This document shows positions 36,545 through 54,654 of a DNA stretch of 64,000 bases, piece by piece. Every line of letters starts with the position of its first letter. Within the stretch, counting starts at the first letter, position 1. Position numbers and translations under genes: made by a program. The stretch spans positions 65,131 through 129,130 of the forward strand of contig JBJLIP010000001.1 of the NCBI GenBank assembly GCA_045563715.1, read 5' to 3'. This DNA is from Gammaproteobacteria bacterium. GTDB lineage: Bacteria > Pseudomonadota > Gammaproteobacteria > Magnimaribacterales > D2472. The notes under the pieces are model-generated. The model saw only the letters and a program-made list of their open reading frames with translations, was not told the DNA's origin and did no database searches.

Positions 36545-36582
36545 TGGAATATGATTTTTACATCATATTTCAAAATATACAA

Positions 36583-37029
36583 CTACTCTGGTGATACTTT
36601 TACTAAAACTTCAATACTAACCTCAGGATGAACACTTATAACGATATTATGTTCCCCTATTTCTTTTATAGGTCCATCAGGCAGTTGAACTTCACTCTTA
36701 TCAATGTGCACTTCATTTTTCATAAATGCTTCTGAAATATCTCTTGTTCCAACAGAACCATAAAGAGCTCCCTCTTCGGTAACAGGGACTAGAATTTCGC
36801 ACTCAGAACCTTCTAAGGCTTTGGCCCTAGCTTCTGCTTGAGTAAGGACATCTGCAGACATTGCAGCTAACTCATCTTTCTTTGCCTCTACCTCGGCTAT
36901 ATTCTTATCACTCGCGAAAGCAGCCTTTTTTTGAGGTATTAGAAAATTCCTTGCATAACCAGAATTAACGTCTACCACATCACCAATCTCGCCTAGTCTT
37001 TGAATTTTATCAAGTAATATAATTTTCAT
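36583..37029 (-). CDS. rplI: 50S ribosomal protein L9
   Basis: 148 aa. MKIILLDKIQRLGEIGDVVDVNSGYARNFLIP. Confidence 0.96.
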   Translation of the reverse strand: MKIILLDKIQRLGEIGDVVDVNSGYARNFLIPQKKAAFASDKNIAEVEAKKDELAAMSADVLTQAEARAKALEGSECEILVPVTEEGALYGSVGTRDISEAFMKNEVHIDKSEVQLPDGPIKEIGEHNIVISVHPEVSIEVLVKVSPE

Positions 37030-37032
37030 GAT

Positions 37033-37227
37033 TTATTTATGCATATCTGTATATGGTATTAATGCTAAAAATCTAGCAATCTTAATATACTTTGTTAATT
37101 TTCTTTGATTAGTTGCTGAAACACCAGAGACTCTTGCTGGAATAATCTTACCTGTTTCTGTTATAAATTGTTTTAGGATATTTACATCCTTGTAATCAAA
37201 CTTTTTTGGTAACTCAAACTTACTCAT
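37033..37227 (-). CDS. rpsR: 30S ribosomal protein S18 (N-terminally short)
   Basis: 64 aa. [34 protein letters not shown]...[11 protein letters not shown]. It lacks about 11 N-terminal residues relative to E. coli S18 as I recall it. Confidence 0.93.
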
Positions 37228-37738
37228 CTTTATCTTCCTGTTCTTTCTGTTCTTCCTTTTCTAACTCAGGGCTTTCTGAAGAATTATCAACTTTATCATC
37301 CTGATCAGCTTCAACCATTTTTTCTTTAACTTGTTGCTTTTCATTTGATTCTGAAGATTTAGATTGTTGGTTCTTGTCTTTATCAACTGCTTTTTCTTCT
37401 GAATCATTTTTTTTGTTTTTAGAGTCTTGAAGCAACTGCGAGTCTTCTCCATTGTGTTCTTTAACAGAGATAAATAAGTGTCTAATTATTGATTCATTGT
37501 ATTTGATCTTATTTTCAATATCTATGAGCTTTGAAGCATCACCTTCGATGTTAAATAACAAATAATGCCCTTTGTTATGATTGTTTATAGAGTAAGCAAG
37601 CTGTCTTCTGCCCACATCTTCTTTTTTTTGAATGCTAAATGAATTGCTCTTAAGTAACTTTTCGAAATCTTTTTCAAAATCACTAGCCTTTGAGGAAAGA
37701 TTTGGATTAAGAATTATTACTGCTTCGTATTTTTTCAT
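37220..37738 (-). CDS. rpsF: 30S ribosomal protein S6 with a long K/E/D/S-rich C-terminal extension
   Basis: 172 aa. [14 protein letters not shown]...[10 protein letters not shown] is the S6 core (about 100 aa), followed by about 70 aa of low complexity ([29 protein letters not shown]...[13 protein letters not shown]). Confidence 0.92.
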
Positions 37739-37816
37739 ATTTATCCTTATGGTTATAGATTTTCATGTTTAGTAAAAACCAAGGAGAAAGCATTCTAATT
37801 GAATTAATTTTTTTAA

Positions 37817-39043: not shown

Positions 39044-39659
39044 AGTTCAGTGCAACTCCATCTCTATATCTCACGTCTATGATACTAGGTATTTTTCTAA
39101 TCTCGTACAAATAATTTAGAGTATCTTCAAAATTTTTAGCTTTTTTTTGTGAGATATCTTTACCAAATCTTATTTGTGTTGATTTAGTACTGACATCCCA
39201 ACCAGTGACAAAGCTATATTTTATTCTATCAATTTTAAGATTCATTAGTTTATTAGATTCAACTAATTCAATTAAAAAGAGAATATTTTCAATTTCATTT
39301 ATGTCTCCATCAACTTTAATTAAGTCATTACGCGATTGATCATACTTAAATCTAACTAGATCTTTATCATAAAAATATTCTGAATTTAGAGTAAACAAAG
39401 GATCTCTATTCTTTATGCTTATAAAGGCCTTATATTGAAAGGGTATAAATACTATTGAGTACTCTTCAATCCAATCTTGTTTTTGAATTAAATTCTGAAT
39501 TCCCCTTTTAGAGGGCTCATTTTGAAGTTCTCTGAATAATTTTTCTTGAGATTGATACTCAAACCCAGATTCAAAATTAATTATAATTTCATATCGACCG
39601 AGCAAACTAGACGAAAATAATAAAAATATTATAAGGAAATTTTTTTTAAATAGACGCAT
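39033..39659 (-). CDS. ftsQ: Cell division protein FtsQ (short)
   Basis: TM anchor (FLIIFLLFSSSLLG), POTRA-like region. Sits between ddl and ftsA. The start is trimmed to MRLFKK at 39659; the ORF-track start at 39722 would lie deep inside ddl. Confidence 0.78.
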   Translation of the reverse strand: MRLFKKNFLIIFLLFSSSLLGRYEIIINFESGFEYQSQEKLFRELQNEPSKRGIQNLIQKQDWIEEYSIVFIPFQYKAFISIKNRDPLFTLNSEYFYDKDLVRFKYDQSRNDLIKVDGDINEIENILFLIELVESNKLMNLKIDRIKYSFVTGWDVSTKSTQIRFGKDISQKKAKNFEDTLNYLYEIRKIPSIIDVRYRDGVALNYGK

Positions 39660-40572
39660 GAATAATCTTTTGGACAACTTCGTTATACCCAAGACCAAAA
39701 AAACTTCCAGATATAGGTACATTGCTATGTTGAGTCATTCCAGGGACCGTGTTTACTTCAATTACATAAAAGTGTCCTTGTTTGTCTTGTAAAAAATCTA
39801 TCCTAGCCCATCCACTACAACCCAAAATATTAAATACTTTTTTAGATATTGATTTAATTTTAATTAGTTCTTTTGAGCTCAATTCTGCTTCAACATGAAC
39901 TGTTTCATCGGAAATATATTTAGCTTCGTAATCATAAAATTCGTTATCAGTAATAATCTCAACTGGAGGAAAGCACTTTTCACCAATTATGGTGACAGTT
40001 ATTTCTCTTCCATCAATATATTCTTCAATTAAAAAACTTCGATTAGGATTGGTACATTCCTCATATGCTTTTTTTATACTTTCTTCATCACTGATTTTAA
40101 AAATGTCTACACTTGAACCATCTTCATTTGGTTTTAAAAATAGATTTTCAAAAGGTCTAAATAAATCAAAAGAAGTATGATGCATTTTGTTTATAACATT
40201 TTCAATATCGAACCTTTGTAATTCAATAAAAGTTGGAGTGTCGATTTTATTAGCTTGAAGAATTTTTTTTGTAATGCCTTTGTTCCAAGTATTTTTACAG
40301 GCCTCTGATTTAGAACCGGAATACAGGATATTTAAATCATCCAAATCTTTTTGAAGTCTTCCACCCTCGCCCTCAAAACCATGAAGCGCAATAAATACTA
40401 AGTCATATTTTTTTAGAGTATTTAAGTCCTCCAAATTTTTAAAATCTATCAGATTGGATTTATATCCTAAATCACATAAAGCTTTGTAAATACCCTGACC
40501 ACTTTGCAATGATATTTCCCTTTCAGATGAAGAGCCTCCACAAAGAACAGCTATTTTTTTTATATTTTCCAT
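39646..40572 (-). CDS. ddl: D-alanine--D-alanine ligase
   Basis: 308 aa. IAVLCGGSSSEREISLQSG, FIALHGFEGEGG, VIEVNTVPGMT. Confidence 0.94.
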   Translation of the reverse strand: MENIKKIAVLCGGSSSEREISLQSGQGIYKALCDLGYKSNLIDFKNLEDLNTLKKYDLVFIALHGFEGEGGRLQKDLDDLNILYSGSKSEACKNTWNKGITKKILQANKIDTPTFIELQRFDIENVINKMHHTSFDLFRPFENLFLKPNEDGSSVDIFKISDEESIKKAYEECTNPNRSFLIEEYIDGREITVTIIGEKCFPPVEIITDNEFYDYEAKYISDETVHVEAELSSKELIKIKSISKKVFNILGCSGWARIDFLQDKQGHFYVIEVNTVPGMTQHSNVPISGSFFGLGYNEVVQKIIHASI

Positions 40573-41954
40573 TTATTTTTTATCATTTCGCATACTTTAG
40601 ATACGCTTCCAGCCCCCTGAGTTACTAAAATATCAAAAGAATCTTTTTTATTACTTATTAAATTAATTACATCGTTATGATTTTTTAAGTAAGTAACATC
40701 TTTATGACCAAGTTGTTTAATTGATTCTGAGATTGTTCTTGAGTGAATTCCCCTTATGGGTTTTTCACTTGCAGAGTAAATGTCTAACAATATTAATGAA
40801 TCTGTTCCATTAAGAACCTTAACAAAATCATCAAAAAGTTGTGCAGTCCTTGAGAACCTATGTGGTTGAAAAATCATGCAAACCTTTTTATTGGGATATT
40901 CTTCTTTATATGCTTTTATGTTTGATTCGATTTCAAGAGGATGATGCCCATAGTCATCAATTAAGGTAATGAACTTTGTATCAACTCTAATTTTATGCTT
41001 TTCATATCTTCTACCTACGCCTGAGAAAGAGGAAATACCTTTCTTGATAGAACCAAGCGGAATGCCCTCCTCCATTGCAACGCCAATTGAAGCTGTTGCA
41101 TTAAAAACATTGTGCTTTCCAGGTAGATTAATTTTAAAATTATGATTCTTATTATTTTTTTTATCAAATATCTCAAAACTTTGTTTTCCACCATTCGGAA
41201 CAATATTTTTAATTTGATAATCGCAGTCTTTTGATTCGCCAAAGGTGATTTTTGTTCTATGAATCCTTCTTGAAATCTTCTTAATATTCTTATCATCTCC
41301 ATTTATTAATAAATAGCCATAAAAAGGGACATTTTCTGAAAACATTACAAATGAGTCTAATAAGTTTTCAAAAATATTCTTGTAATGTACTAAATGATCA
41401 TCGTCAATATTTGTTATTACTGCTACATCCGGTTGAATATGAATAAATGTACCATCACTTTCATCAGCCTCTGCAACCAAGTATTTACCCTCTCCTAGAT
41501 CAGAGTTTTCATCAGTACTTAATACTTTTCCACCTACCACGTAGGTGGGACTTAAATTGGCAACGCTTAAAATCTTTGCAATTATACTAGTTGTAGTAGT
41601 TTTGCCATGACTTCCTGCTACAGCAATGCTTTCATAACCTATCATGATACTTCCAAGCATTTCTGCTCTTGGAATTACTGTTATTGAACTTTTTTTAGCA
41701 TGAATGAGTTCAGGATTCTGTTTGTCAATTGCTGATGAAAAAACTATTAAATTCGTGCCCTCAATATTTCTTTTAGAATGTCCAATAAAAACTTTAGCTC
41801 CGTCTTTTCTAAGCTTTTTAAGTTCATTAGAGTCAGCAATATCAGAGCCAGATATCTTGTAACCTTTCTTTAATAAAACTCTAGCAATACCTATCATTCC
41901 TGCTCCACCAATTCCAACAAAATGTATTTTTTTTATTTTTTTAAAGAGTTTCAT
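40560..41954 (-). CDS. murC: UDP-N-acetylmuramate--L-alanine ligase
   Basis: 464 aa. IHFVGIGGAGM, VAGSHGKTTTTS, DDYGHHP. Confidence 0.95.
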   Translation of the reverse strand: MKLFKKIKKIHFVGIGGAGMIGIARVLLKKGYKISGSDIADSNELKKLRKDGAKVFIGHSKRNIEGTNLIVFSSAIDKQNPELIHAKKSSITVIPRAEMLGSIMIGYESIAVAGSHGKTTTTSIIAKILSVANLSPTYVVGGKVLSTDENSDLGEGKYLVAEADESDGTFIHIQPDVAVITNIDDDHLVHYKNIFENLLDSFVMFSENVPFYGYLLINGDDKNIKKISRRIHRTKITFGESKDCDYQIKNIVPNGGKQSFEIFDKKNNKNHNFKINLPGKHNVFNATASIGVAMEEGIPLGSIKKGISSFSGVGRRYEKHKIRVDTKFITLIDDYGHHPLEIESNIKAYKEEYPNKKVCMIFQPHRFSRTAQLFDDFVKVLNGTDSLILLDIYSASEKPIRGIHSRTISESIKQLGHKDVTYLKNHNDVINLISNKKDSFDILVTQGAGSVSKVCEMIKNKWKI

Positions 41955-42996
41955 TCTTAAAATATTTTTCTATATGACTGATAATAATTTCACTAGACTT
42001 ACTATGGCTCTGGTTAGCATTCTTTTTCCAATCAAGAAAGGTTTTATTTTCAATAATTTTATATATTTTGCTCAAAAGTATATCTAATGAATCTTTTTGA
42101 TCATGTATTATACCCATCTGCATCTGTTCTATAATTTTTGCATTTTCAACCTGATGATTATCAATTGATGTTGGCAGAGGTACTACAATAACACCTCTTT
42201 TCAACGAGGTAATTTCAGATAAGCTTAAAGCGCCGCCTCTAGAAATAACAAAATCAGACCATAATATTTGCTCTGCTGGATTATCATAAAATTCAAAAAC
42301 TTCAGCCATAATATTTTGATGTAAATATAAATTTTTAACTTTTTCTAAATTATTCTTTCCACATTGATGCTTAACTTCTATTGGATAAGGGAAATCTTGA
42401 AATATCTTTGGAACTTTTTTATTGATATATTCTGCTCCTTGACTTCCTCCTGTAATATAAACATTTATAGAATTATTATTATTATTATTTAACTCGTCTG
42501 GGTTGTTTACAAAAGACCTTCTTATGGGGTTTCCTGATATAACCGACCTTTTAATGCCCTCTATTGGAAATCCAAGAAAATTTATTTTAGAGAAAATAGT
42601 GATTAATTTATTAGCAGATCCCAATACAGCATTTTGTTCATGCAAAAAAACTGGTTTTCTTTTAAGCCAACACCCAATCCCAGCTGGAACTGTTATAAAG
42701 CCCCCAAAACCAATCATGCCATCGATTTTTTCTTTTGATATTATCTTAATAACCTTGAAGATGCTAACAAGCACTTGGAATAATACATGTAATTTTTTTA
42801 TAAAATTTTGTCCCCTGAAACCCTGAATTGAAAGATTATATGATTTAGAACAAATATCTGCATATGCACTCTTTTCAATTACAGAATCAGTTCCAAGAAA
42901 AATAATCTCATGATCATTAGAAATCAACTCCTTTGCAATTGATGATGCAGGATAAACATGTCCTCCGGTTTTAGCAGCTACTATTAAAAATTTCAT
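41941..42996 (-). CDS. murG: Lipid II synthase MurG (UDP-GlcNAc transferase)
   Basis: 351 aa. AAKTGGHVYPA, ITGGSQGA, SRGGALSLSE, HQVENA. Contains an Asn6 run. Confidence 0.94.
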   Translation of the reverse strand: MKFLIVAAKTGGHVYPASSIAKELISNDHEIIFLGTDSVIEKSAYADICSKSYNLSIQGFRGQNFIKKLHVLFQVLVSIFKVIKIISKEKIDGMIGFGGFITVPAGIGCWLKRKPVFLHEQNAVLGSANKLITIFSKINFLGFPIEGIKRSVISGNPIRRSFVNNPDELNNNNNNSINVYITGGSQGAEYINKKVPKIFQDFPYPIEVKHQCGKNNLEKVKNLYLHQNIMAEVFEFYDNPAEQILWSDFVISRGGALSLSEITSLKRGVIVVPLPTSIDNHQVENAKIIEQMQMGIIHDQKDSLDILLSKIYKIIENKTFLDWKKNANQSHSKSSEIIISHIEKYFKNETL

Positions 42997-42999
42997 TGT

Positions 43000-44109
43000 C
43001 TATAGTGATTTATTTTCATTATTTATTCTAAGAACAATACCCATAAGAGAAAACATTATAATGATACTAGTTCCACCATAGCTTATAAAAGGAAGAGTAA
43101 GGCCTTTTGTTGGAAGTAGCCCAATATTAACAGCAATATTAAATAACATTTGTATTGCTGTAAGCATAAAGATACCAAAAACAACGTATCCTTGGAAAAA
43201 CCTAGCTTTAAGAAATGATTCATGCATGATAGATATTAAGCCTAAAAATAGAACTACAAATAATAAAATTAAGATTAATCCGCCAATAATGCCAAGCTCC
43301 TCTACTAATATTGCAAAAATAAAATCAGTATGAGCTTCTGGCAAAAAAAAGCTTTTTTGAAAACTATTGCCTAAGCCAACTCCAAGCCAGCCTCCTTGAC
43401 CAATACTAATTAATGAATTTGAAAGCTGGTATCCTGCATTTAAAACAACTTCAGTTGCAAAAGGGTCTCTAAAAGCTAAAACCCTTGCCAATCTGTACTC
43501 CGAATCTGTAATAGCAACATATCCTAATAAAGCTATTAACAGGATCAATAAACCTAATTGAGAAAAGGATATGCCTGCATAAAAGAGAATACCAACAACA
43601 AGCAAAGAAACTATCGCTGTTGATCCAAGGTCTGGTTGTCCCATTATCAATATAGAAATTACAAAAAGTAATGCAAGTGGTTTCAAGAAACTTCTAAGAG
43701 AATCAATTTCTGACATTCTTCTTACTGAGTACCCTGATATATATAGAATTAAACTAAATTTGCATATCTCAGAGGGCTGGATATTAATTGATCCCAATCT
43801 AATCCATCTAATACTCCCATTAACACTCGTGCCTACATCTGGTATGAATAAAGCAATCAACAACAAAATACTTATAAGCATAAAAATCCAATCAGTTTTA
43901 AAGAGTAAATTTGAAGGCAAAAGCAAAAAAATAGTCATTGTTATCAACCCTACTGATACAAAAATTATTTGTCTTTTAGCAAAATAGAAGGGATCCGATG
44001 CTATATCATCTGCAACATACATGCTTGATGAAGCTACCATTATCATCCCTAAAATTACCAAAATTGATAAAGGTAAAATTACTAAAACATCATTCTTACT
44101 TAAATTCAT
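43000..44109 (-). CDS. ftsW: SEDS peptidoglycan glycosyltransferase FtsW
   Basis: 369 aa, 10 TM helices. IQPSEICKF, PEAHTDFIFA, GLTLPFISYGGTS. Confidence 0.94.
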   Translation of the reverse strand: MNLSKNDVLVILPLSILVILGMIMVASSSMYVADDIASDPFYFAKRQIIFVSVGLITMTIFLLLPSNLLFKTDWIFMLISILLLIALFIPDVGTSVNGSIRWIRLGSINIQPSEICKFSLILYISGYSVRRMSEIDSLRSFLKPLALLFVISILIMGQPDLGSTAIVSLLVVGILFYAGISFSQLGLLILLIALLGYVAITDSEYRLARVLAFRDPFATEVVLNAGYQLSNSLISIGQGGWLGVGLGNSFQKSFFLPEAHTDFIFAILVEELGIIGGLILILLFVVLFLGLISIMHESFLKARFFQGYVVFGIFMLTAIQMLFNIAVNIGLLPTKGLTLPFISYGGTSIIIMFSLMGIVLRINNENKSL

Positions 44110-45146
44110 TTTGTTAGATATTTTTTTAATAAAAAATTAAAGTGGTAACCTCTTTCATTGAAATTCTTAAAATCTTTCCCACTTGGATAACCAGGTGAAA
44201 ATAGAATATTACTAGAATCACTGAGTTTAAAAATTGATTCTAATACGTCTGATAAAGAGTCCATTATTATTTTTCTTGGGTGGTCTAAGCATTTATCTAT
44301 ATCTTTAGCATGAAAGCCACAAATAAAAACTTCTTCTGGTTCGCTTACAGAAATTTTTCTAAAATTCTCTTTTTTTGGATCTCCACATACTATTAGCTTG
44401 AAGTTTGAGCTCTTAAAAAGTTCACTAGCTTGTCTAAGGGCATAAGATAAAGAGTGGTAATTTGTTGATTTTGAATCATTGATAATATTCTTAGTAATAA
44501 TTTCATATCTATATGGGAGATTCTCAAATTCAATTTGCTCTGGTTTGGTTTCTGTAATCCACTCAAAAAGTTTGTATGGATCTGATTCATATGATATTGA
44601 ATTCTTAGCTAAAAGAATTTTTTTCTTTGCATCTTTGTAGGATTTAATATTTCCATGATAGTCAATATGATCAACATCAATATTAAGCAGAATTCCATAG
44701 TCTAATTTATTTTTTTTCATTTTATCTAGTTGAAAGCTAGATAATTCGATTATTGAAAATTCTTTATGATTATTTATGTAATCGAGCATAGGATTGCCAA
44801 TATTTCCAATTAAATTTGCAGATTTATAATTTTCAAAAATTTGTTTCAGATGATAAGCAGTGGTGCTTTTTCTATTGGTGCCGGTAATTCCTATTTTAAT
44901 TGACTTATCTTCATTGAAAAAAATATCTAAATCTGTATAGATATTTTTATTTTCTTTTACTAATTTTTTATAGATATCTTTTGGTATGCCAGGGCTACAA
45001 AAAATTTTATCAAAAGCTCTTAAATCAAATTCTTTTCTAAAATCATCTAAATTATTATCAAATATCTCAAATTTCTTATTTTTTTTATTTAAATACCTTT
45101 CAAAAGATTTACCTGTCTCTCCATATCCGTATATAAGAGACTTCAT
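44106..45146 (-). CDS. murD: UDP-N-acetylmuramoylalanine--D-glutamate ligase (unusually short)
   Basis: 346 aa. GYGETGKS, P-loop ITGTNRKSTT, ELSSFQL, LPYRYEII, NDSKSTN, C-terminal SPGYPSGKDFKNFNERG. Canonical position between mraY and ftsW. Confidence 0.88.
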   Translation of the reverse strand: MKSLIYGYGETGKSFERYLNKKNKKFEIFDNNLDDFRKEFDLRAFDKIFCSPGIPKDIYKKLVKENKNIYTDLDIFFNEDKSIKIGITGTNRKSTTAYHLKQIFENYKSANLIGNIGNPMLDYINNHKEFSIIELSSFQLDKMKKNKLDYGILLNIDVDHIDYHGNIKSYKDAKKKILLAKNSISYESDPYKLFEWITETKPEQIEFENLPYRYEIITKNIINDSKSTNYHSLSYALRQASELFKSSNFKLIVCGDPKKENFRKISVSEPEEVFICGFHAKDIDKCLDHPRKIIMDSLSDVLESIFKLSDSSNILFSPGYPSGKDFKNFNERGYHFNFLLKKYLTK

Positions 45147-45153
45147 TTGTTTT

Positions 45154-46245
45154 TTACCTTAATTTTAAAGTTGCCAGCGCGATGAGAATAAGCACAAGAG
45201 TAATAATCCAGAATCGAACAATAATTTTAGGTTCAGCCCATCCCTTTAATTCATAGTGATGATGAATTGGCGCCATCAAAAAGACTCTTTTACCGCGTGT
45301 TTTATATGAAATAACTTGAATTGCAACACTTAATGTTTCTATAACAAATACTCCTGCCATAATTGCAAATACTAGCTCGTGTCGAAGAATTATTGCTATT
45401 ATCCCAAGAATTGCTCCTAAGGCCAGGGATCCAATGTCCCCCATAAATATTTGAGCAGGGTATGTGTTGTACCACAAAAAACCTATTCCAGATCCAATAA
45501 GAGCGCCACAAAAAACTATTAACTCACCAGACAAGGGTAAATGTGGTAAATAGAGATAATCTGATACAAGTTGATTACCCATCGAATATGCTATGAGTCC
45601 AAGAGCTCCTCCAATCAAGACCGAAGGCAAAATTGCCAAACCATCTAGGCCATCTGTTAAATTTACAGCATTAGATGAACCAACAAGAACAAAAACACCT
45701 GTGAATATAAATAAGAATGGTGACATGGGTAAAATTGCGTCTTTAAAAAATGGGACAATAAAAGAAGTTTCTGGAGGAATTTCAGCAGAAACATATAAAT
45801 ATGTCATTGCTAGTAGTGCTATGAATGATTGGAAAAATATTTTTTGCTTAGATGAAAGCCCATCCGAGCTTTTAAGTTTTATTTTTAAATAATCATCAAA
45901 AAATCCAATCACTGAGAATCCAACTGTAACAAAAAGAACTACCCATATATATCTATTCCCAAGATCAGCCCAAAGAAGAGTTGAGATTATTAATGATGAA
46001 AGTATCAACAAACCACCCATTGTAGGTGTTCCCCTTTTTTTATAATGCGATTGTGGTCCATCATCTCTAACGTATTGTTGAAATTGCATGGATTTTAAAA
46101 AATTAATAATAACAGGACCCAAAAGAATCGAGATAAGCAGAGCTGTTAAGGTTCCACCAATAGTTCTAACTGTTAAGTATCTTAGAACATCAAACCCAGG
46201 ATCGACTGATACTAATACCGTTCCTAAATATTCAAACATTTGCAA
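45154..46245 (-). CDS. mraY: Phospho-N-acetylmuramoyl-pentapeptide transferase
   Basis: 363 aa. [42 protein letters not shown]. Confidence 0.97.
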
Positions 46246-47572
46246 ATCTTTCCATTTTCATTCCCCGTGAGCCTTTTATTAAGATAACATCTTTTGATGT
46301 AACATTTATCTTTAAGTACTTCTTTAAATCTTCTTCTTTGTCAAAAAAAACACCTTTATTACCATATCCTTTGACTATTTCTTTTGCTAATTTGCCATAA
46401 CCAAGTAAAACATTTATACCTCTTGCTCTAGCATATTCTCCAACTTCTTTATGAAGCTTCTTCTTATACCTACCTAACTCAAGCATATCTCCTATTACTA
46501 AGACAGTATTTTTTTTATAATTACTTAATAAATCAATAGATTTTTTTGTAGAATCAGGATTTGCATTATAAGTATCGTTAATTAAAGTAGAGCCCCTTAA
46601 CCATTTAGACTTAACTTGTCTAATATCCTGAATGTCTTTTGAGTTTAATTTATTAGCAAAATTTTTAGTCTCTCTACCACAACAATAATTAACAGCAAAA
46701 CTAGCTAAAATATTTTTAATATTATGTTCTCCTTCAAGCGAAGTTTTAATTTGAATATCATTTTTAATTAATCTTGATGTTATCTTGAAATGAGTTCCAT
46801 TCTTATGATTGAGAATTTCACGCGGAGAGAAATCAGCATTTTTGTTCATGCCAAATGTATAAATATTTATATCTTTTCTCATACTTTTCCAAAATCTTAA
46901 ATGCTTTTCATTCTCATTTGGGACTATTAGATTGCCGTCTTTTTTTATATTATTTACTAACTCAGATTTAACATTTAATACTCCATTTATGTTTTTTAAT
47001 TTTTCAAGATGTGAACTTCCAATATTCGTTATTACGCCTATACAAGGCTTTAGGATTTTACTTAGATAATTAATGTCTCCAGTTTTAGAAGCACCAATTT
47101 CTATAACAATATCACTTGATTTTGGTGAGGCATTCATAATACTGATAGGCATGCCAATTTCGTTATTAAAATTACCTATGGTGCTTGAGCAATTAGTTAG
47201 CGTATTTGAAATAATATTAGTGGTGCTGGTTTTACCATTACTGCCCGTTACTGCTATCACATTTCCATAATAATTTTTAATAATATTTTTAGAAATTTTC
47301 TCTAGTCCCATTATTGTATTTTTAACATAAATAATTCTTTTATCTTTTGATCTTATGTATTTTTTGTCATCGACTATTGCAACTGATGCACCTTTTTTAA
47401 ATGCTTCTTCAACAAAATCATTTCCATTAAAATTGTCTCCATTAATCGCGATAAACAAAGACCCTTTTTTTATGGATCTTGTATCAAGAGAAATATCTTT
47501 TATTAATATATTGGCAACAACCTTTTTTTCTAAATAAAAAGATAAATCATTAGAGTTATTTATAAATTTCAT
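46232..47572 (-). CDS. murF: UDP-MurNAc-tripeptide--D-alanyl-D-alanine ligase
   Basis: 446 aa. [30 protein letters not shown]. Confidence 0.94.
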
Positions 47573-49028
47573 TTACAACCTCATGATCACTAAAAAAAAT
47601 TGTTTTATTGTTTTCCTCTTGAATATCTTCATGGCCCTTACCTAAAATTACTACACAATCATTATCAGATATTCTTTTTACAGCAAATAAAATTGCTTCT
47701 CTTCTATCTTTTATCTTAACAACATTTTCAATATTATTATTTTTTGCAGCATCCTTAAAAATATCTTCAAAATCTTCAGACCTTGAATTATCCGATGTAA
47801 AAATTACTTCTGATGAGTTCTGCAAAGCTGCATTAAGCATCTTTGAACGCTTGAGTTTATCTCTATCACCCCCACAGCCCATAATCACGATAAGATTTTC
47901 GTAATATTTTTTTATTGAGGATAAGAAATAATTAATCGCTTCAAAATTATGAGCATAATCAATAATTATATTTGAAGGAATGTTTTTAATAATCTCAGAT
48001 CTACCTTTTGGTAATTTTAGAAATTTTAGATCATTAATATAATTTTCTTTAAACCCATCAAACCCAATAGAGCAAATTGCGAATACTAGATTTTGAACAT
48101 TAAACTCTGGGAAGATATTGCATGAAAATTCATACTTTTCTTTGTCTTTTTCTTCATCTCCATGTATTTGTTTATTAATGATTATTTCAAAGGTTGTTTT
48201 TATTGTAGATATTTCATTAATCTTATAAAAAATATCAGAAAATTTATTTTGCTCACTTATTACTGATAATTTACTTTGATTATTTTGAATAAAATCATAA
48301 TTTTTACTAAATTTATATGACGCCTCATCTATGAAATTTACCAAAGATTTGAATCTAAAAATTTCAAATTTTGCATCTATATATGCTTCTATATTTTTAT
48401 GATAATCGATATGATCATTTGTTATATTTAATATAGATGCTGATTTTAACCAGTTAAGATTTTTTAACCTCCCTTGATCCAATGCATGAGAAGATATCTC
48501 AATACAAATATTTATAGCATCCTTTAATTTAAAATGACTAAGAATATAAAATAACTCAAAAATATCTGGAGTAGTTTTTGATGAAAAGGTTGTATTAATA
48601 TTTTCTTGATTATATTTAACACCCAAGGTTCCTATGTATAGTGATTCATGTCCTTGATTAATTAAAAGTTGGTGACAAAGATAAGCGGATGATGTCTTTC
48701 CGTTCGTTCCTGTAAATGAAAAAAAATTATTTTTATGTAATTCGACTCCGTACAAGGCATTTAGACAGCTTGTTATCTTTTCTTCAAGATCTTTAATATA
48801 AAAAATATTTATATCCCCTTTATCATAATCAGGATCATTATGGACAGCCAGTGATGCTCCTAAATCAATAGCTTTTTTACAATATTTACTTCCATGATTT
48901 TTGGTTCCGGGCAGTCCAAAGAAAATTGAGTTTTTTATTACCTCACTTGAAGAATTTGTTGCAAATGCAATTTTTGTATCTTTAGGGAAATTAATATTTA
49001 GTATGCTCTCTAATTTATTCATCCTCAA
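47556..49028 (-). CDS. murE: UDP-MurNAc-L-Ala-D-Glu--2,6-diaminopimelate ligase
   Basis: 490 aa. FTGTNGKTSS, IIDYAHN, CGGDRDK, SDNSRSED (a DNPR-type motif). Confidence 0.92.
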   Translation of the reverse strand: MRMNKLESILNINFPKDTKIAFATNSSSEVIKNSIFFGLPGTKNHGSKYCKKAIDLGASLAVHNDPDYDKGDINIFYIKDLEEKITSCLNALYGVELHKNNFFSFTGTNGKTSSAYLCHQLLINQGHESLYIGTLGVKYNQENINTTFSSKTTPDIFELFYILSHFKLKDAINICIEISSHALDQGRLKNLNWLKSASILNITNDHIDYHKNIEAYIDAKFEIFRFKSLVNFIDEASYKFSKNYDFIQNNQSKLSVISEQNKFSDIFYKINEISTIKTTFEIIINKQIHGDEEKDKEKYEFSCNIFPEFNVQNLVFAICSIGFDGFKENYINDLKFLKLPKGRSEIIKNIPSNIIIDYAHNFEAINYFLSSIKKYYENLIVIMGCGGDRDKLKRSKMLNAALQNSSEVIFTSDNSRSEDFEDIFKDAAKNNNIENVVKIKDRREAILFAVKRISDNDCVVILGKGHEDIQEENNKTIFFSDHEVVNEIYK

Positions 49029-50634
49029 AATATCCCAAATGATTCAAAGAACTTTCTGCAATTTTTGCAAAAACTGGTGCAGCAACTGATCCTCCGGTAT
49101 ATGAGTTCAATCCTGGCTCATCTATTGAAACAAATATAGTTAGTGATTTTTCATTCAAAGGCGCTATTCCAATGAAAGAAGCTCTATATGAGTCTTCTGC
49201 ATATCCATAGCCTTTTCTTGTTTGATGAACTGTCCCAGTTTTGCCACCCTCAGAAAACCCTTTTACCTCTGCAGCTTTTCCAGTGCCATCTTTAACTACT
49301 TTTTCTAATGCATCAAGGATATTTAAGGCGGAATCACTTGAAATAATTCTTCTTGAAGTTACTTGTTCATTCTTTAAAAGTTGAAAATCTTTATATTCAC
49401 CATTGTTTGCAAAAACTGAATATGCCGAAGCTATTTGAAAAGGGCTCATGGTAATTCCATAACCATAACCTAAGCTTGCAAGCTCCCTATCTGAAACTAA
49501 TTCTTTTATTTCCATATAACCAAAAGCACTTGAGGGAAAATTAATTGAAATTGGTTTTGTAAAACCAAAATCATAATAATTTCTTTTTAATTCTTCATAA
49601 CCCAACTCTAATGCAATCTTTGATGCTCCAACCTGACTAGAAACTGCAATTATCTCTTTTGGAGTTAGTTTTTCATGATTTTTCGAATCTACAATGATTT
49701 TATTATCCAAATTTAATCTTCTTGGAATATCAATTAATTCATCAGGCAAAAATAAATTTTTATCTAATGCTTTAGATAAAACTATGGGCTTTAATACAGA
49801 CCCTGGTTCATACGCTTCTACTAATGCTCTGTTTTTTTGAATCTTTCTTTGAGGGTGATTTGGGTTATAAGAAGGATAGCTTGCCATAGCAAGAATTTCT
49901 CCCTTTTTATTGTCTAGAATGATTACAGTGCCTGCCTTAGCTTTATTTTTTTTAATAGCTTCAACTAAATATTTGTATGCAAAAAATTGTATAGTTGCAT
50001 CAATTGTTAGATGTAGATCTTCTCCTTTGACAGATTTAATTACCTCGACAGGCTTTGATATGATTTCTTGCTTGGCATTTTTATAGAATTTTTGTTCGCC
50101 CTTTATACCTGATAGCACCCTGTCATAACTTTTTTCTAAGCCCTCTTGTGCTCCATCTTTGCCATAAAAGCCAACCAATGTTGCAATCTGATCACCTAAG
50201 GGATAGTGCCGGCTGTGCCTGGTCTCAATTTCATAATTTTTTAGATTTTTCTTATTTATTTCAAATAGAGCTTCTTTTGACAATCCTTTTTTTATTAGAG
50301 TTTTCTTTGGGAAAGATTCATAATCCATATTAACTTCAATATCTAAAAATTCAGCAAGACTCAATAATTGTTGTTTTGAAAAACCTTTCAATGCATAAAG
50401 ATCATAATTAACAATTGAGATAGCCAGTGGGAAGTTATTTCTATCAAAAATGCTACCTCGAACAGGGTTTACTTCTTTGTATCTGATATATCTTTTATTA
50501 CCCTCGTCTTTGAGAAAGTTGCTATCGACAAATTGAATTGAAAAAATCTTAAAAATTATTGCTCCCAGCGCACAGGAAAACATTATTGCAATTAATGCAA
50601 ATCTCCAATTAAATAAAATATTTTTATTTTTCAT
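49015..50634 (-). CDS. ftsI: Division transpeptidase FtsI (PBP3)
   Basis: 539 aa. N-terminal TM helix, SxxK in EPGSVLKP, KTGT in GGKTGTV. Confidence 0.94.
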   Translation of the reverse strand: MKNKNILFNWRFALIAIMFSCALGAIIFKIFSIQFVDSNFLKDEGNKRYIRYKEVNPVRGSIFDRNNFPLAISIVNYDLYALKGFSKQQLLSLAEFLDIEVNMDYESFPKKTLIKKGLSKEALFEINKKNLKNYEIETRHSRHYPLGDQIATLVGFYGKDGAQEGLEKSYDRVLSGIKGEQKFYKNAKQEIISKPVEVIKSVKGEDLHLTIDATIQFFAYKYLVEAIKKNKAKAGTVIILDNKKGEILAMASYPSYNPNHPQRKIQKNRALVEAYEPGSVLKPIVLSKALDKNLFLPDELIDIPRRLNLDNKIIVDSKNHEKLTPKEIIAVSSQVGASKIALELGYEELKRNYYDFGFTKPISINFPSSAFGYMEIKELVSDRELASLGYGYGITMSPFQIASAYSVFANNGEYKDFQLLKNEQVTSRRIISSDSALNILDALEKVVKDGTGKAAEVKGFSEGGKTGTVHQTRKGYGYAEDSYRASFIGIAPLNEKSLTIFVSIDEPGLNSYTGGSVAAPVFAKIAESSLNHLGYFEDE

Positions 50635-50899
50635 TGATATAAATCTTATTTGGTTTCTTTTTTTTCATTCCTAACTCATCTTTGGCAATCATCTCAATGT
50701 TTGAAGGTGAGTTTTCGACATGAAATTGTGTTATCAATTTTAAATTAAAATCTTTTAAGTTTTCATTTTCAATTTTCAAATTTTCATAATTATTGTGAAG
50801 AGTTCTAATCTCCCATGAGAGTTTGATTTTTTCCATACTGAGAAAAAATATAGATATTATTAGTATTGTTATAGATAAGAATAGTTTTTTATTTATCAT
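50624..50899 (-). CDS. ftsL: Cell division protein FtsL
   Basis: 91 aa. TM helix plus coiled coil. Sits between rsmH and ftsI. Confidence 0.85.
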   Translation of the reverse strand: MINKKLFLSITILIISIFFLSMEKIKLSWEIRTLHNNYENLKIENENLKDFNLKLITQFHVENSPSNIEMIAKDELGMKKKKPNKIYINEK

Positions 50900-51789
50900 A
50901 TCTTTTGAAAAACCCTCATTATTGCGCTTCTTGATCTATTGTTCATTTTGATCTCTTTTTCAGAAGGTCTAATTTTTTTTGCTAAACACGTAAAGTCTTT
51001 TTCTTCAATATTATTTACTGGTATGTCTTTAGGGAATGATTTTAATGATGGCTTGAAACTATTTTTAATAATATTATCTTCAAGAGAATGGAATGCAATA
51101 GTCACTATTACTCCTTTTTTCTTTATGACTTTTTTTGCAGCATCTAAAGATAATTTAAGGTCTTCCAGTTCTGAATTAAGAAAAATTCTAAATGCTTGAA
51201 ATGATTTTGTTGCAGGATGTATTTTTTGTTTTTTATTTGGGTATATTTGTTCGATGATTCTTGCTAATTCTGTTGTTCTTAATATGGGGTTATATTTTCT
51301 TTGTTTACAAATTTCATTTGCGATTATTCTTGCATGTCTTTCATCTCCAAATTTAAATAGAACCTCCACAATATTTTCTTCATTAGCAGTATTGATCCAA
51401 TCTGATAGAGGAATTCCTTTTGTATTATTAAATCTCATATCTAAAGGCCCATCTTTGTTAAAACTAAAGCCTCTTATTGGATCATCAAAATGGGTTGAAC
51501 AAGTTCCCAAGTCATAAATAATACCATCAATAGTCTGTCTCTCAATATACTGTTCAAGATTTTTGAATGAATCATTATATATTTTGAAATTCGGTGCCTT
51601 GATATTTGAAGCGAAACTAATAGAATCTGGATCCTTATCAAAGGCTAATAAAAAACCATTATTTGAAATCATTTCTAGAATTAGTTTTGAATGCCCGCCT
51701 CTTCCATAAGTACAATCTAGGTAGTGTCCATCGATATCATGAATTAAAAAATCAATTGATTCTTCCAGTAAAACTGGAAAATGAAGCAT
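50896..51789 (-). CDS. rsmH: 16S rRNA m4C1402 methyltransferase RsmH (MraW)
   Basis: 297 aa. HFPVLLEES, DCTYGRGGHS, DLGTCSTHFDDPIRGFSF. Confidence 0.95.
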   Translation of the reverse strand: MLHFPVLLEESIDFLIHDIDGHYLDCTYGRGGHSKLILEMISNNGFLLAFDKDPDSISFASNIKAPNFKIYNDSFKNLEQYIERQTIDGIIYDLGTCSTHFDDPIRGFSFNKDGPLDMRFNNTKGIPLSDWINTANEENIVEVLFKFGDERHARIIANEICKQRKYNPILRTTELARIIEQIYPNKKQKIHPATKSFQAFRIFLNSELEDLKLSLDAAKKVIKKKGVIVTIAFHSLEDNIIKNSFKPSLKSFPKDIPVNNIEEKDFTCLAKKIRPSEKEIKMNNRSRSAIMRVFQKI

Positions 51790-51791
51790 TT

Positions 51792-52901
51792 TTAATCTAC
51801 TTGCTTTCTCATAAAAGTCGGCACATCAAGGAAATCAATTTCCTCTGCAGACGACGTGCCAACTTCCTGATTTGTTTTATCTTTATTTAAACCAACAGGA
51901 TTTAATTTCATTGTGGGCTCATTATCAATTACTAATGACGGAGCTCTTTGATCAACCCCTGTTGCAACAATAGTTACCTGGAGATCATCTCCAAAGCTAT
52001 CATCGTAAACAAGACCATAAATAATATTTGCATCTTCACTAACAATTTCATCAACAATATCTGCAACCTCAGCCTGGTCACCTAAAGTTGGTTTCTTTGC
52101 AGTAATATTTACAAGAACACCTCTTGCATTTTTAAGGTTGATATCTTCCAGTAATTCACTTTTTACAGCCATTGTTCCTGCAACCTCTGCTCTATTCTTA
52201 CCACTTGCTCTTCCAGTGCCCATCATTGCAATGCCTTTTTCAGACATCACAGTTTTGACATCAGCAAAATCAACATTGATATGTCCCTTTTTCATAATAA
52301 TATCTGATATACCCTGAACAGCGCCTCTTAAAACATCATCTGCTTTGGCAAATGCATCCTGCATTGGGGTATCTTGTCCTAAAATTTCATAAAGCTTTTG
52401 GTTGGGTATTGTTACAAGACTGTCAACTTCTTCAACTAAAGCAGCAAGTCCTTTTTCAGCAGAACTCATTCTTTTCTTACCCTCAAACTTAAAAGGTTTT
52501 GTAACTACAGCCACAGTCAACGCCCCAAGATCTTTCGCTATTGATGCTATAACTGGAGCAGCCCCTGTACCTGTTCCGCCTCCCATACCAGCTGTAATAA
52601 ATATCATATCTGCGCCTGCCAATAGCTCTTCTATTGCAGTTCTATCACTCTCTGCGGCCCTTCTTCCAACATCTGGATCTGCGCCAGCGCCAAGTCCTTT
52701 AGTTAGACCATTGCCTAATTTTAGTGTTATTGCTCCATCAGCAGTTGAAAGTGCTTGAGTATCGGTATTAGCGCAAATAAAATCAACCCCTTCGATATCA
52801 TGATTAATCATATGGATAACTGCATTTCCGCCACCACCGCCAACACCAACTACTTTAATTTTTGCGTTTTCTACTGCTTGTCCTATAACCTCAAAATTCA
52901 T
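51792..52901 (-). CDS. ftsZ: Cell division GTPase FtsZ (non-canonical position between mraZ and rsmH)
   Basis: 369 aa. GVGGGGGNA, tubulin signature GMGGGTGTGAAPV, NVDFADV, C-terminal FtsA/ZipA-binding peptide DFLDVPTFMRKQ. Preceded by a strong Shine-Dalgarno, AGGGGAAG. Confidence 0.98.
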   Translation of the reverse strand: MNFEVIGQAVENAKIKVVGVGGGGGNAVIHMINHDIEGVDFICANTDTQALSTADGAITLKLGNGLTKGLGAGADPDVGRRAAESDRTAIEELLAGADMIFITAGMGGGTGTGAAPVIASIAKDLGALTVAVVTKPFKFEGKKRMSSAEKGLAALVEEVDSLVTIPNQKLYEILGQDTPMQDAFAKADDVLRGAVQGISDIIMKKGHINVDFADVKTVMSEKGIAMMGTGRASGKNRAEVAGTMAVKSELLEDINLKNARGVLVNITAKKPTLGDQAEVADIVDEIVSEDANIIYGLVYDDSFGDDLQVTIVATGVDQRAPSLVIDNEPTMKLNPVGLNKDKTNQEVGTSSAEEIDFLDVPTFMRKQVD

Positions 52902-52914
52902 TTACTTCCCCTAA

Positions 52915-53382
52915 TTAAAATGACATTGATTTAATGCTTTCTGGAAGAACTACATCTAATATTTCTGTAGACAAGGATCCTCCTGTTTGTCTCATTTCCC
53001 AACTATCAATATTCCATACTTCAAATTTTTCGCCCATACCCACTAAAGCAATTTGTTTTTTATTTTCAATTTCAGCATATTTTTGGAGTTCAGTTGGTAT
53101 TCTGATCAACATCCTTCCACCAAAATCTATCCTAGTTTCATGAGCATTTCCAAGAATTGTCCACTGAATATTTCTAACAATTGGATCTAAACCTTGAAGA
53201 GATTGAAGTTTTGTTGAAATTCTTTCCCACTCAAGTCCAAAGTAAACTTTTAAAGATGGGTACTGAGGATCTTTTGTTATAACGATCTTTGATTGATTTT
53301 GAGATTTGAAGTCAGCTCTATATCTTGCAGGTATTGAAAGCCTGCCTTTTGCATCAAAAGAAACTGTATTAAAACCAAACAT
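52915..53382 (-). CDS. mraZ: Transcriptional regulator MraZ
   Basis: 155 aa. Two SpoVT/AbrB-like repeats (DAKGRLSIPARYR and DFGGRMLIRIPTELQ). Confidence 0.95.
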   Translation of the reverse strand: MFGFNTVSFDAKGRLSIPARYRADFKSQNQSKIVITKDPQYPSLKVYFGLEWERISTKLQSLQGLDPIVRNIQWTILGNAHETRIDFGGRMLIRIPTELQKYAEIENKKQIALVGMGEKFEVWNIDSWEMRQTGGSLSTEILDVVLPESIKSMSF

Positions 53383-53405
53383 TTACAAAATATAAAGTCT
53401 TTTTG

Positions 53406-53440
53406 CACACAATGCAACACTTTTGCACACTTTTTCACAC
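53406..53440 (-). promoter_or_regulatory. Four 10-bp-phased direct pentamer repeats, candidate MraZ operator
   Basis: The minus strand reads GTGTG-aaaaa-GTGTG-caaaa-GTGTT-gcatt-GTGTG (plus-strand cacac/aacac at 53406-10, 53416-20, 53426-30 and 53436-40). It lies 24-58 nt upstream of the mraZ ATG. The architecture matches the pentamer plus 5-nt spacer reported for MraZ boxes. Confidence 0.6.
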
Positions 53441-53471
53441 TAATTGATCAAAAAGTAAGGCTTTCAATAAA

Positions 53472-53804
53472 AGTGAGTTGGTTTATAAGCCGGATTCTGT
53501 AAATGATGATCATCTATCTTGATATTATGTTGCCATAATATTCTAGCAACCTACCCAAATCCAAAGCGAGCAACTTTATAGGATTTCTATTTGGTTTTGC
53601 TTCAAGCTGGGGTTTGCAATGCCCTAGATGTTACCATCTAAGCGGTAAGCTCTTACCTTACCATTTCACCCTTACCAAAAAATTGGCGGTATATTTTCTG
53701 TTGCACTTTCCGTAAGCTCACGCTTCCCAGGTGTTACCTGGCGCCCTGCTCTATGAAGTCCGGACTTTCCTCTAAATAAATTAGCGATCATCCAACCAAC
53801 TCGG
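53472..53804 (-). ncRNA. rnpB: RNase P RNA, bacterial type A (compact, about 333 nt)
   Basis: The reverse complement contains GAGGAAAGTCCGGACTTCATAG, GCCAGGTAACACCTGG, AGTGCAACAGAAA, GGTAAGGGTGAAA and ACAGAATCCGGCTTAT. P1 pairs GAGTTGGTT (5') with AACCAACTC (3'). A TATAAT at 53809-53814 sits about 7 nt before the predicted 5' end. The rsmI-rnpB-mraZ position matches Pseudomonas. The ends are accurate to about 3 nt. Confidence 0.95.
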
Positions 53805-53822
53805 TTTTATTATAATGATTTT

Positions 53823-54638
53823 TTAACTTTCTATAAGATATTTATAAATATCTCTTTTATTTTGTCCTGTTATTAATGATATTAATTTCGCTGCATCAGA
53901 TGCTGATAGTTTCTTTAAAAATTCATTTTTAACTTTTAAATTAAAAGAAAAATCAGTCTGATTTTTTTGCGAACCAGCAATAACTAAAACTATTTCTCCC
54001 CTTAAAACAACTTTATTAGTTTCAATACTCTCTAAAACGTCTTTTAAACTACCTCTAATTATTTCTTCATGAAGCTTTGTCATTTCTCTACAAATAGCAA
54101 TCATTCGGTCTGACCCAATGGATTTAATCAAATTAGAGATTGTCTTTTCAACTCTTTTAGGTGATTCAAAAAAAATTGATGTTTTCGTATCATTTTTTAA
54201 ATTTTCAAAAAATACTTTTTGCTCATGGTCTTTTTTTGGCATAAAGCCAAAAAAAGAGAACTTATCTGTCGGTAGTCCCGACATTACGATAGCATTAACT
54301 ATAGAAGATGGGCCTGGTATTAAAGTGTAGTTGATAGATTGTTTTATACACTCTTTAATTAATTTGTACCCAGGATCTGAAATAGTTGGAGTTCCTGCAT
54401 CTGAGACTATTGAAACGCACTTATTCTTTTTTATTTTATTAATTATGTCCAATGAGATTTTATCTTCATTATGCTCATGAAAACTTATACACCTCTTGTC
54501 ACAATTAATAAAATTTAATAACTTCTTAGTAATTCTGGTGTCTTCAGCATATAAATAATCACATGATCTTATAACATCTATAGCCCTAAGTGATATATCA
54601 TTTAAGTTGCCGATTGGTGTAGAAATAAAATATAACAT
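53823..54638 (-). CDS. rsmI: 16S rRNA 2'-O-methyl-C1402 methyltransferase RsmI
   Basis: 271 aa. LYFISTPIGNLNDISLRA, AEDTR, SDAGTPTISDPG (tetrapyrrole-methylase fold). Confidence 0.93.
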   Translation of the reverse strand: MLYFISTPIGNLNDISLRAIDVIRSCDYLYAEDTRITKKLLNFINCDKRCISFHEHNEDKISLDIINKIKKNKCVSIVSDAGTPTISDPGYKLIKECIKQSINYTLIPGPSSIVNAIVMSGLPTDKFSFFGFMPKKDHEQKVFFENLKNDTKTSIFFESPKRVEKTISNLIKSIGSDRMIAICREMTKLHEEIIRGSLKDVLESIETNKVVLRGEIVLVIAGSQKNQTDFSFNLKVKNEFLKKLSASDAAKLISLITGQNKRDIYKYLIES

Positions 54639-54654
54639 TTAGTTTAAATAAAAT

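Follow-up and report, generated by a model that had tools for sequence, protein, structure and literature searches.

The window analyzed in this study, a stretch of 64,000 nucleotides from a gammaproteobacterium of the SAR86 order (assembly GCA_045563715.1, contig JBJLIP010000001.1, positions 65,131 to 129,130), carries a cluster of genes for division and the cell wall (dcw) in which the cell division gene ftsZ occupies the second position, directly behind mraZ and in front of rsmH. The dcw cluster is among the most order-conserved gene clusters of bacteria, and its canonical order, found in Escherichia coli, Pseudomonas, and most rods, ends with ftsQ-ftsA-ftsZ(-lpxC). Judged from the loci compared, the mraZ-ftsZ-rsmH order is an inherited, old trait to which an entire SAR86 family is fixed, and not a one-off. 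The finding holds up firmly and amounts to a variant dcw gene order shared by a clade; it does not constitute a new system. An earlier note on this DNA knew of no description of the arrangement and listed a common occurrence in the clade among the outcomes that would refute it. The arrangement is not peculiar to this genome: the order is fixed in the family, recurs without mraZ in the sister family, and exists also in the annotated genome of the SAR11 bacterium 'Ca. Pelagibacter ubique' HTCC1062.

The SAR86 order was divided into four families, f1 to f4. The window genome belongs to f1, equated with GTDB D2472 ('Suzuki') because of the named SAR86 records that fall in it and of the description by Freel et al. 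(bioRxiv 10.1101/2024.03.17.584874); f4 is the sister of f1, and f2 and f3 form the other SAR86 clade, Magnimaribacteraceae (including isolate HIMB1674) and RedeBAC7D11/AG-339-G14. The mraZ-ftsZ-rsmH string, located between rsmI and ftsL-ftsI, was found in 20 of 20 loci of the same genus. The string is likewise present in all 18 loci spanning the ten f1 genera sampled and in each of 14 named public SAR86 records, which are single-amplified genomes (SAGs) and metagenome-assembled genomes (MAGs) (including the single-cell genome SCGC AAA076-P13 and a 'SAR86B' MAG). The complete f1 order is rsmI-rnpB-mraZ-ftsZ-rsmH-ftsL-ftsI-...-ddl-ftsQ-ftsA, then rpsF. The layouts of f2, f3, and f4 were read from 15-20 kb around ftsZ. 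Family f4 has the f1 order minus mraZ, rsmI-rnpB-ftsZ-rsmH (four of four genomes viewed), and none of the seven f4 genomes with a completeness of 90% or more contains mraZ. A second layout, rsmI-rnpB-mraZ-rsmH-ftsL-ftsQ-ftsA-ftsZ-ftsI-murE-...-murC-ddl, then rpsF, was observed in f2 and f3 (7/7 genomes, with the ftsQ open reading frame (ORF) missing in one). Orthologs of the genes from ftsL to ddl are present in all SAR86 families (tblastn), and comparison of the loci shows that in every part of the order ftsZ is close to the 5' end of its cluster.

The split (f1,f4)|(f2,f3) has an SH-aLRT (approximate likelihood-ratio test) support of 100 in a tree built from a concatenation of ten dcw proteins, and published SAR86 phylogenomics agrees with it (Freel et al., bioRxiv 10.1101/2024.03.17.584874). 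Since the two layouts track this split, each marks one deep SAR86 clade, and on the genomes compared they are clean synapomorphies of the two clades. Among 66 outgroup loci, ftsA lies directly upstream of ftsZ in 61, lpxC is also found downstream in 34, and neither mraZ nor rsmH adjoins ftsZ in any. A search of the phylum (200 genomes) with a fused RsmH+FtsZ query gave, among the matches listed, six suspected RsmH-FtsZ adjacencies (G216, G258, G184, G324, G333, and G366), all of which are canonical, with the order ddl-ftsA-ftsZ(-lpxC). In the FtsZ tree, which holds no SAR11 sequence, all SAR86 sequences stand opposite the 66 outgroup sequences across one branch with a support of 95. This position fits vertical descent of FtsZ and its relocation within the genome.

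The genes of the window were identified with NCBIfam profiles, and MraZ and the ftsQ-like ORF were also compared with Pfam; the strength of a Shine-Dalgarno (SD) sequence was calculated as its pairing with the 3' tail of the genome's own 16S rRNA (anti-SD, ...CACCUCCUUA). The features of the locus, in window coordinates, are as follows.

53823..54638, minus strand: rsmI (16S rRNA C1402 2'-O-methyltransferase; TIGR00096, 239.6 bits), the upstream neighbor in all four SAR86 families.
53470..53803, minus strand: rnpB (RNase P RNA, class A; RF00010, 317.6 bits), its 3' end 87 nt before the mraZ ATG.
53407..53440, minus strand: candidate MraZ operator of four GTGT(G/T) boxes in exact 10-nt phase.
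53389..53417, minus strand: candidate Pmra promoter, -35 TTGCAT (53417-53412), 17-nt spacer, -10 TATATT (53394-53389).
52915..53382, minus strand: mraZ, 155 aa, first gene of the predicted operon (PF02381, 63.3 bits; TIGR00242, 87.9 bits).
52905..52912, minus strand: SD sequence AGGGGAAG of ftsZ, within the 13-nt spacer behind mraZ (pairing with the anti-SD, -6.4 kcal/mol).
51792..52901, minus strand: ftsZ, 369 aa, second gene of the predicted operon (TIGR00065, 394 bits).
50896..51789, minus strand: rsmH (TIGR00006, 308 bits), starting 2 nt past the ftsZ stop.
39646..50899, minus strand: ftsL-ftsI-murE-murF-mraY-murD-ftsW-murG-murC-ddl in the canonical internal order, genes overlapping or nearly abutting (FtsL, TIGR02209).
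39033-39722, minus strand: divergent ftsQ-like ORF, named from position and weak similarity.
37817-39043, minus strand: ftsA, the last dcw gene (TIGR01174, 471 bits).
37739..37816, minus strand: ftsA-rpsF junction of 78 nt, one breakpoint of the ancient 3'-flank exchange.
35174..37738, minus strand: rpsF-(rpsR)-rplI-dnaB, the new downstream neighbors (rpsF, 37220-37738; profile matches for S6, L9, and DnaB).

The ORF map reproduces to the base the gene order, the coordinates, and the 13-, 2-, and 78-nt gaps reported in the earlier note. The dcw block (53382-37817, about 15.6 kb) lies entirely on the minus strand and reads mraZ-ftsZ-rsmH-ftsL-ftsI-murE-murF-mraY-murD-ftsW-murG-murC-ddl-ftsQ-ftsA, so that the full gene set is kept in one same-strand cluster headed by mraZ, and the departure from the canonical order consists in ftsZ being the second gene and rpsF following ftsA. 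In the wider minus-strand order, rsmI, rnpB, and the four MraZ boxes precede mraZ, which is followed by 13 nt, ftsZ, 2 nt, rsmH to ftsA, 78 nt, and rpsF. The position of rnpB is identical in the f2, f3, and f4 loci.

FtsZ passes the equivalog cut-off of TIGR00065 (394.1 bits versus 295.2, residues 9-324), and its translation carries the tubulin signature GGGTGTG (GMGGGTGTGAAP) and the C-terminal peptide DFLDVPTFMRKQ (DFLDVPTFMRKQVD), the FtsA/ZipA-binding type, in agreement with the previous description of a full-length gene. MraZ passes the PF02381 cut-off (63.3 bits versus 23, in two matched stretches, in keeping with a pair of SpoVT/AbrB-like MraZ repeats), scores slightly below the NCBIfam cut-off for TIGR00242 (87.9 versus 98.35 bits), and carries two DXXXR motifs, DAKGR and DFGGR. 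Neither Pfam nor NCBIfam gave a match for the 229-aa ftsQ-like ORF. It aligns end to end, at a weak 23% identity, with the f2 ORF located between ftsL and ftsA, whose weak PDB matches are to FtsQ chains only (2vh2_A, E = 0.002). From its position and this weak similarity, the window ORF may tentatively be assigned to FtsQ; as listed, it overlaps ddl by 77 nt. There is no ftsQ-sized ORF between ftsL and ftsA in one f3 genome (G026, L133:5353-5574), nor between ddl and ftsA in one f4 genome (G033, L134:17840-17913), and some SAR86 genomes seem either to have lost ftsQ or to retain it in an unrecognizably reduced form. Downstream of the cluster, ribosomal protein S6 has a Lys/Glu/Asp/Ser-rich tail of about 70 aa, and the rpsF-rplI interval of about 190 nt means that S18 must be short.

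The genome (1.27 Mb, four contigs, 97% complete) contains a single copy of ftsZ, and the search for a second ftsZ proposed in the earlier note found none in the 97%-complete genome, which also has no canonical ftsA-ftsZ-lpxC copy elsewhere. The absence of lpxC after ftsA is confirmed as well, the gene being located at C1:270979-271896, about 153 kb from the dcw cluster. Within the genus, FtsZ identity is 85-95%, compared to 74-85% for MraZ and 62-78% for RsmH (62-85% over the neighbors as a whole). Given this higher conservation, ftsZ is a working gene under strong constraint. An assembly or binning artifact, with chimeric mraZ-ftsZ-rsmH and ftsA-rpsF junctions, can be practically dismissed: these junctions recur in 52 loci, taken from SAGs, MAGs, and near-complete genomes that were assembled independently (20 + 18 + 14, where some of the 14 named records may repeat genomes already counted), and the mraZ-ftsZ spacer with its SD sequence is conserved across the loci. 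The synteny comparison with relatives, also suggested in the note, shows the same order in all f1 loci checked and thus refutes mis-assembly, in favor of which no point was found.

The two flanks of the cluster have a history of their own. In all four SAR86 families the last dcw gene is followed by rpsF-rplI-dnaB, and the string rnr-rlmB-lpxC-secA is present in representatives of all four (G000:C1:268777-274655 in the window genome, where the rnr ORF as listed has 486 aa, short for RNase R). In the outgroup comparison, lpxC follows ftsZ, and rlmB-rpsF-rplI are contiguous in four of the five complete gammaproteobacterial genomes tested. In every SAR86 genome that is complete or nearly so, dcw and lpxC are on different strands with about 150-185 kb between them, and inverting the segment between both breakpoints restores both outgroup adjacencies. 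The simplest account would be one inversion of about 150-185 kb in the SAR86 ancestor, which would explain both junctions; two translocations are the alternative. An inversion symmetric about the origin is not supported, as the 103-271 kb segment of this four-contig assembly does not include dnaA, which maps to C1:434590. Since the junctions are common to all four families, including the two with ftsZ elsewhere, the flank exchange is separate from, and older than, the move of ftsZ; the view that the ftsA-rpsF junction was a by-product of that move is therefore abandoned. In f4, ftsA and rpsF are separated by about 5-8 nt (L134:19106-19115, L135:19628-19634), and in this family the dcw genes may share a transcript with dnaB and the genes for ribosomal proteins.

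The region upstream of mraZ contains the candidate control signals. The four-box pattern has its sole match in the window 24-58 nt upstream of the mraZ ATG, with zero matches expected from shuffled sequences. The boxes are kept upstream of mraZ in f1, f2, and f3 and are absent in the mraZ-less f4. The joint loss of the boxes and mraZ in f4 supports their assignment as the MraZ operator, and the cryo-EM (cryo-electron microscopy) structure of the Mycoplasma genitalium MraZ-DNA complex shows a four-box GTG(T/G) operator of the same design (PMC12957436). Thus the four GTGT(G/T) boxes are a candidate MraZ operator, at which binding and repression by MraZ are predicted. The candidate -10 box ends 6 nt before the mraZ ATG, and the candidate promoter overlaps boxes 3 and 4; the pattern TTGCAa-N17-TATATT is kept across genus g1 and the neighboring genera. 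A consensus promoter scan gave fewer promoter-like sites than shuffled sequences and is thus uninformative in this AT-rich DNA, and a consensus scan for terminators found none between rnpB and mraZ. The mraZ gene has no SD sequence (-0.9 kcal/mol), and a transcript from the candidate Pmra would be leaderless or nearly so.

The SD sequence in front of ftsZ is the strongest in the cluster, and the AGGGGA motif before this gene is conserved in all f1 genera. The rsmH gene has no SD sequence of its own (-1.6 kcal/mol); with this lack and the 2-nt gap, it is probably translationally coupled to ftsZ. Third-position entropy revealed no unusual synonymous constraint in the last 25 codons of mraZ, which is a weak test and a coarse one in an AT-rich genome. 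In f4, the ftsZ ATG is 19 nt past the rnpB 3' end and has no SD sequence (L134:4653-5003, G033; L135:4654-5003, G027; also L153 and L154). This gap leaves no room for a promoter, and hence transcription of the f4 dcw genes must start within or before rnpB. Further upstream in the window, 19 nt separate the stop codon of rsmI from the 5' end of rnpB (53804-53822), and the start codons of rsmI and an lpoA-like gene are 16 nt apart (54639-54654). Given these short gaps, the rnpB promoter must lie inside rsmI.

In E. coli, most ftsZ transcription comes from promoters inside ddlB-ftsQ-ftsA, and the terminal ftsZ with its internal promoters is the textbook basis of the FtsZ:FtsA ratio. For f1 we propose, with somewhat more confidence than doubt, a different arrangement. 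The ftsZ gene would have no promoter of its own and would be transcribed together with mraZ from the promoter overlapped by the four MraZ boxes, with a possible addition from rnpB read-through. The 13- and 2-nt spacers and the unconstrained 3' end of mraZ are indirect evidence for such co-transcription. The supply of FtsZ would thereby come under MraZ autoregulation, and operon position together with the conserved strong SD sequence would determine how far FtsZ exceeds FtsA, unlike the case of the E. coli internal promoters. As to history, the comparison of the families shows that, before the SAR86 radiation, the dcw 3' end became joined to rpsF-rplI-dnaB and rlmB to lpxC-secA; our confidence applies to this explanation as a whole.

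Several observations weigh against this proposal. Co-transcription, the position of the promoter, and repression by MraZ are deduced from sequence features. The candidate -35 box is weak, with three of six matches, and did not reach the cut-off used in the consensus scan. The earlier claim that ftsZ has the clearest SD sequence is correct in that it ranks first, but the lead is small, with murF (-6.3), ftsL (-6.1), rpsF (-6.0), and ftsA (-5.9 kcal/mol) all within 0.5 kcal/mol. The synonymous-site test is compatible with a short promoter inside mraZ. Further, ftsZ has stayed in front in f4, where MraZ is missing, and its place there is thus not maintained by MraZ control. Finally, the direction and number of the rearrangement steps are compatible with more than one history.

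Indeed, each SAR86 layout can be derived by one block move from a canonical order ending ftsQ-ftsA-ftsZ and then rpsF, whereas conversion of one layout into the other (f1/f4 to f2/f3 or the reverse) would take two moves. A single ancestral tandem duplication of the segment from rsmH to ftsZ, differently resolved, fits as well as two separate moves. Retention of ftsZ from the first copy and of the remainder from the second could yield the f1/f4 layout, and that of f2/f3 could result if the first copy supplied rsmH, ftsL, ftsQ, ftsA, and ftsZ, and the second ftsI to ddl. The spacers of 2-78 nt are too short for relics, and so the duplication and separate-move routes look alike in sequence. Of the earlier suggestion that ftsZ moved by about 13 kb to the promoter-proximal end, the location behind a conserved four-box operator is retained, and the move of ftsZ alone becomes one fit, with the duplication fitting equally.

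The duplication also bears on a neutral explanation, which we consider unlikely, though not strongly so: a chance rearrangement, such as a tandem duplication of the cluster with random copy loss in a shrinking genome, after which ftsZ would be fed mainly by a private promoter inside mraZ or by rnpB read-through, with position and MraZ having little effect on dosage. One duplication of rsmH to ftsZ, resolved in two ways, would yield both SAR86 layouts; the stretch from rnpB to mraZ showed no independent terminator; and in f4, where transcription has to begin in or before rnpB with merely 19 nt left in front of ftsZ, the gene stays in front despite the loss of mraZ and its boxes. However, ftsZ is promoter-proximal in both deep SAR86 clades and in SAR11, which is more than one chance event predicts, the mraZ 3' end lacks the synonymous-site constraint, and throughout f1 the mraZ-ftsZ pair is immediately preceded by strictly conserved MraZ boxes.

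The SAR11 parallel brings in two further readings. In 'Ca. Pelagibacter ubique' HTCC1062, the RNase P RNA lies in the spacer beside mraZ (SAR11_0033) on the same strand (PMC2704228), and SAR11_0032 is ftsZ (PMC3870248). A xenologous replacement, in which ftsZ or the rnpB-mraZ-ftsZ block came from, for instance, a SAR11-like donor and the original ftsZ behind ftsA subsequently disappeared, would agree with this shared order, but it is very improbable. In the tree of SAR86 and outgroup FtsZ, which includes no SAR11 sequence, the proteins of all four SAR86 families are split from the 66 outgroup sequences (support 95), their best matches outside SAR86 are gammaproteobacterial (52-55% identity), and rsmI-rnpB-mraZ is also found in those SAR86 families whose ftsZ still adjoins ftsA. 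As SAR11 belongs to the alphaproteobacteria, its arrangement presumably originated independently, and the occurrence of the order in an annotated, cultured SAR11 bacterium lowers the novelty of the SAR86 case and makes convergence among streamlined plankton more possible. We therefore mention, as a tentative and rather doubtful suggestion, that forward relocation of ftsZ could be a convergent adaptation of streamlined marine plankton bacteria, with operon position setting dosage after the loss of internal promoters and regulators. Relocation would then have happened twice within SAR86, once with ftsZ alone and once with ftsQ-ftsA-ftsZ, and again in SAR11. The ftsZ mRNA of f4, the most reduced of the SAR86 families, would, as part of the same suggestion, be a processed rnpB co-transcript; if so, this mRNA is made together with RNase P RNA and freed by rnpB 3'-end processing.

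SAR86 and SAR11 provide natural variants with a promoter-proximal ftsZ right behind mraZ or the operator region, one lineage having later dropped MraZ, and such variants allow testing whether gene position alone sets the stoichiometry of division proteins. Further, ftsZ transcript counts serve as an in situ growth index for SAR86 and SAR11 (PMC13349992). The ftsZ counts of these two groups may not compare with those of taxa whose ftsZ has dedicated promoters.

No description of the SAR86 dcw rearrangement was found in the searchable literature, a search that left outside the broad dcw survey of Megrian et al. 2022, and neither ftsZ nor cell division comes up in the article that describes the first SAR86 isolate (bioRxiv 10.1101/2024.03.17.584874). 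New here are the flank-exchange account of the rpsF and lpxC junctions, the finding that f4 has lost mraZ together with the operator, the 19-nt rnpB-ftsZ spacing of that family, and the published SAR11 parallel.

Compared with the canonical dcw cluster of E. coli and Pseudomonas, the window cluster has the same gene set on one strand, mraZ in first position behind a GTG-box operator, and the same order from ftsL to ddl-ftsQ-ftsA. The rsmI-rnpB pair upstream of the cluster is presumably shared with Pseudomonas as well. In contrast to the canonical cluster, ftsZ is the second gene, ftsA is terminal, lpxC-secA is exchanged for rpsF-rplI-dnaB, and ftsZ promoters of the E. coli type would find no intergenic space in spacers of 2-13 nt. 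The f2 and f3 clusters resemble that of the window in the location of ftsZ in the 5' part, the MraZ boxes, the rsmI-rnpB flank, and the dcw-rpsF and rlmB-lpxC junctions, but they have ftsQ-ftsA-ftsZ between ftsL and ftsI and ddl in the last position, whereas in the window ftsZ stands alone in front and ftsQ-ftsA are at the end.

Outside SAR86, the HTCC1062 locus has the same rnpB-mraZ-ftsZ order, with adjacency judged by locus tag, in another abundant, genome-streamlined marine bacterium, which, unlike SAR86, is an alphaproteobacterium. In M. genitalium and M. pneumoniae (mraZ-mraW-MG_223-ftsZ), ftsZ also lies shortly behind mraZ and a four-box GTG(T/G) operator (PMC12957436; PMC8475190). There, however, the two genes came close through the loss of cell-wall genes with the order kept, whereas SAR86 keeps its cell-wall genes and it is ftsZ that moved.

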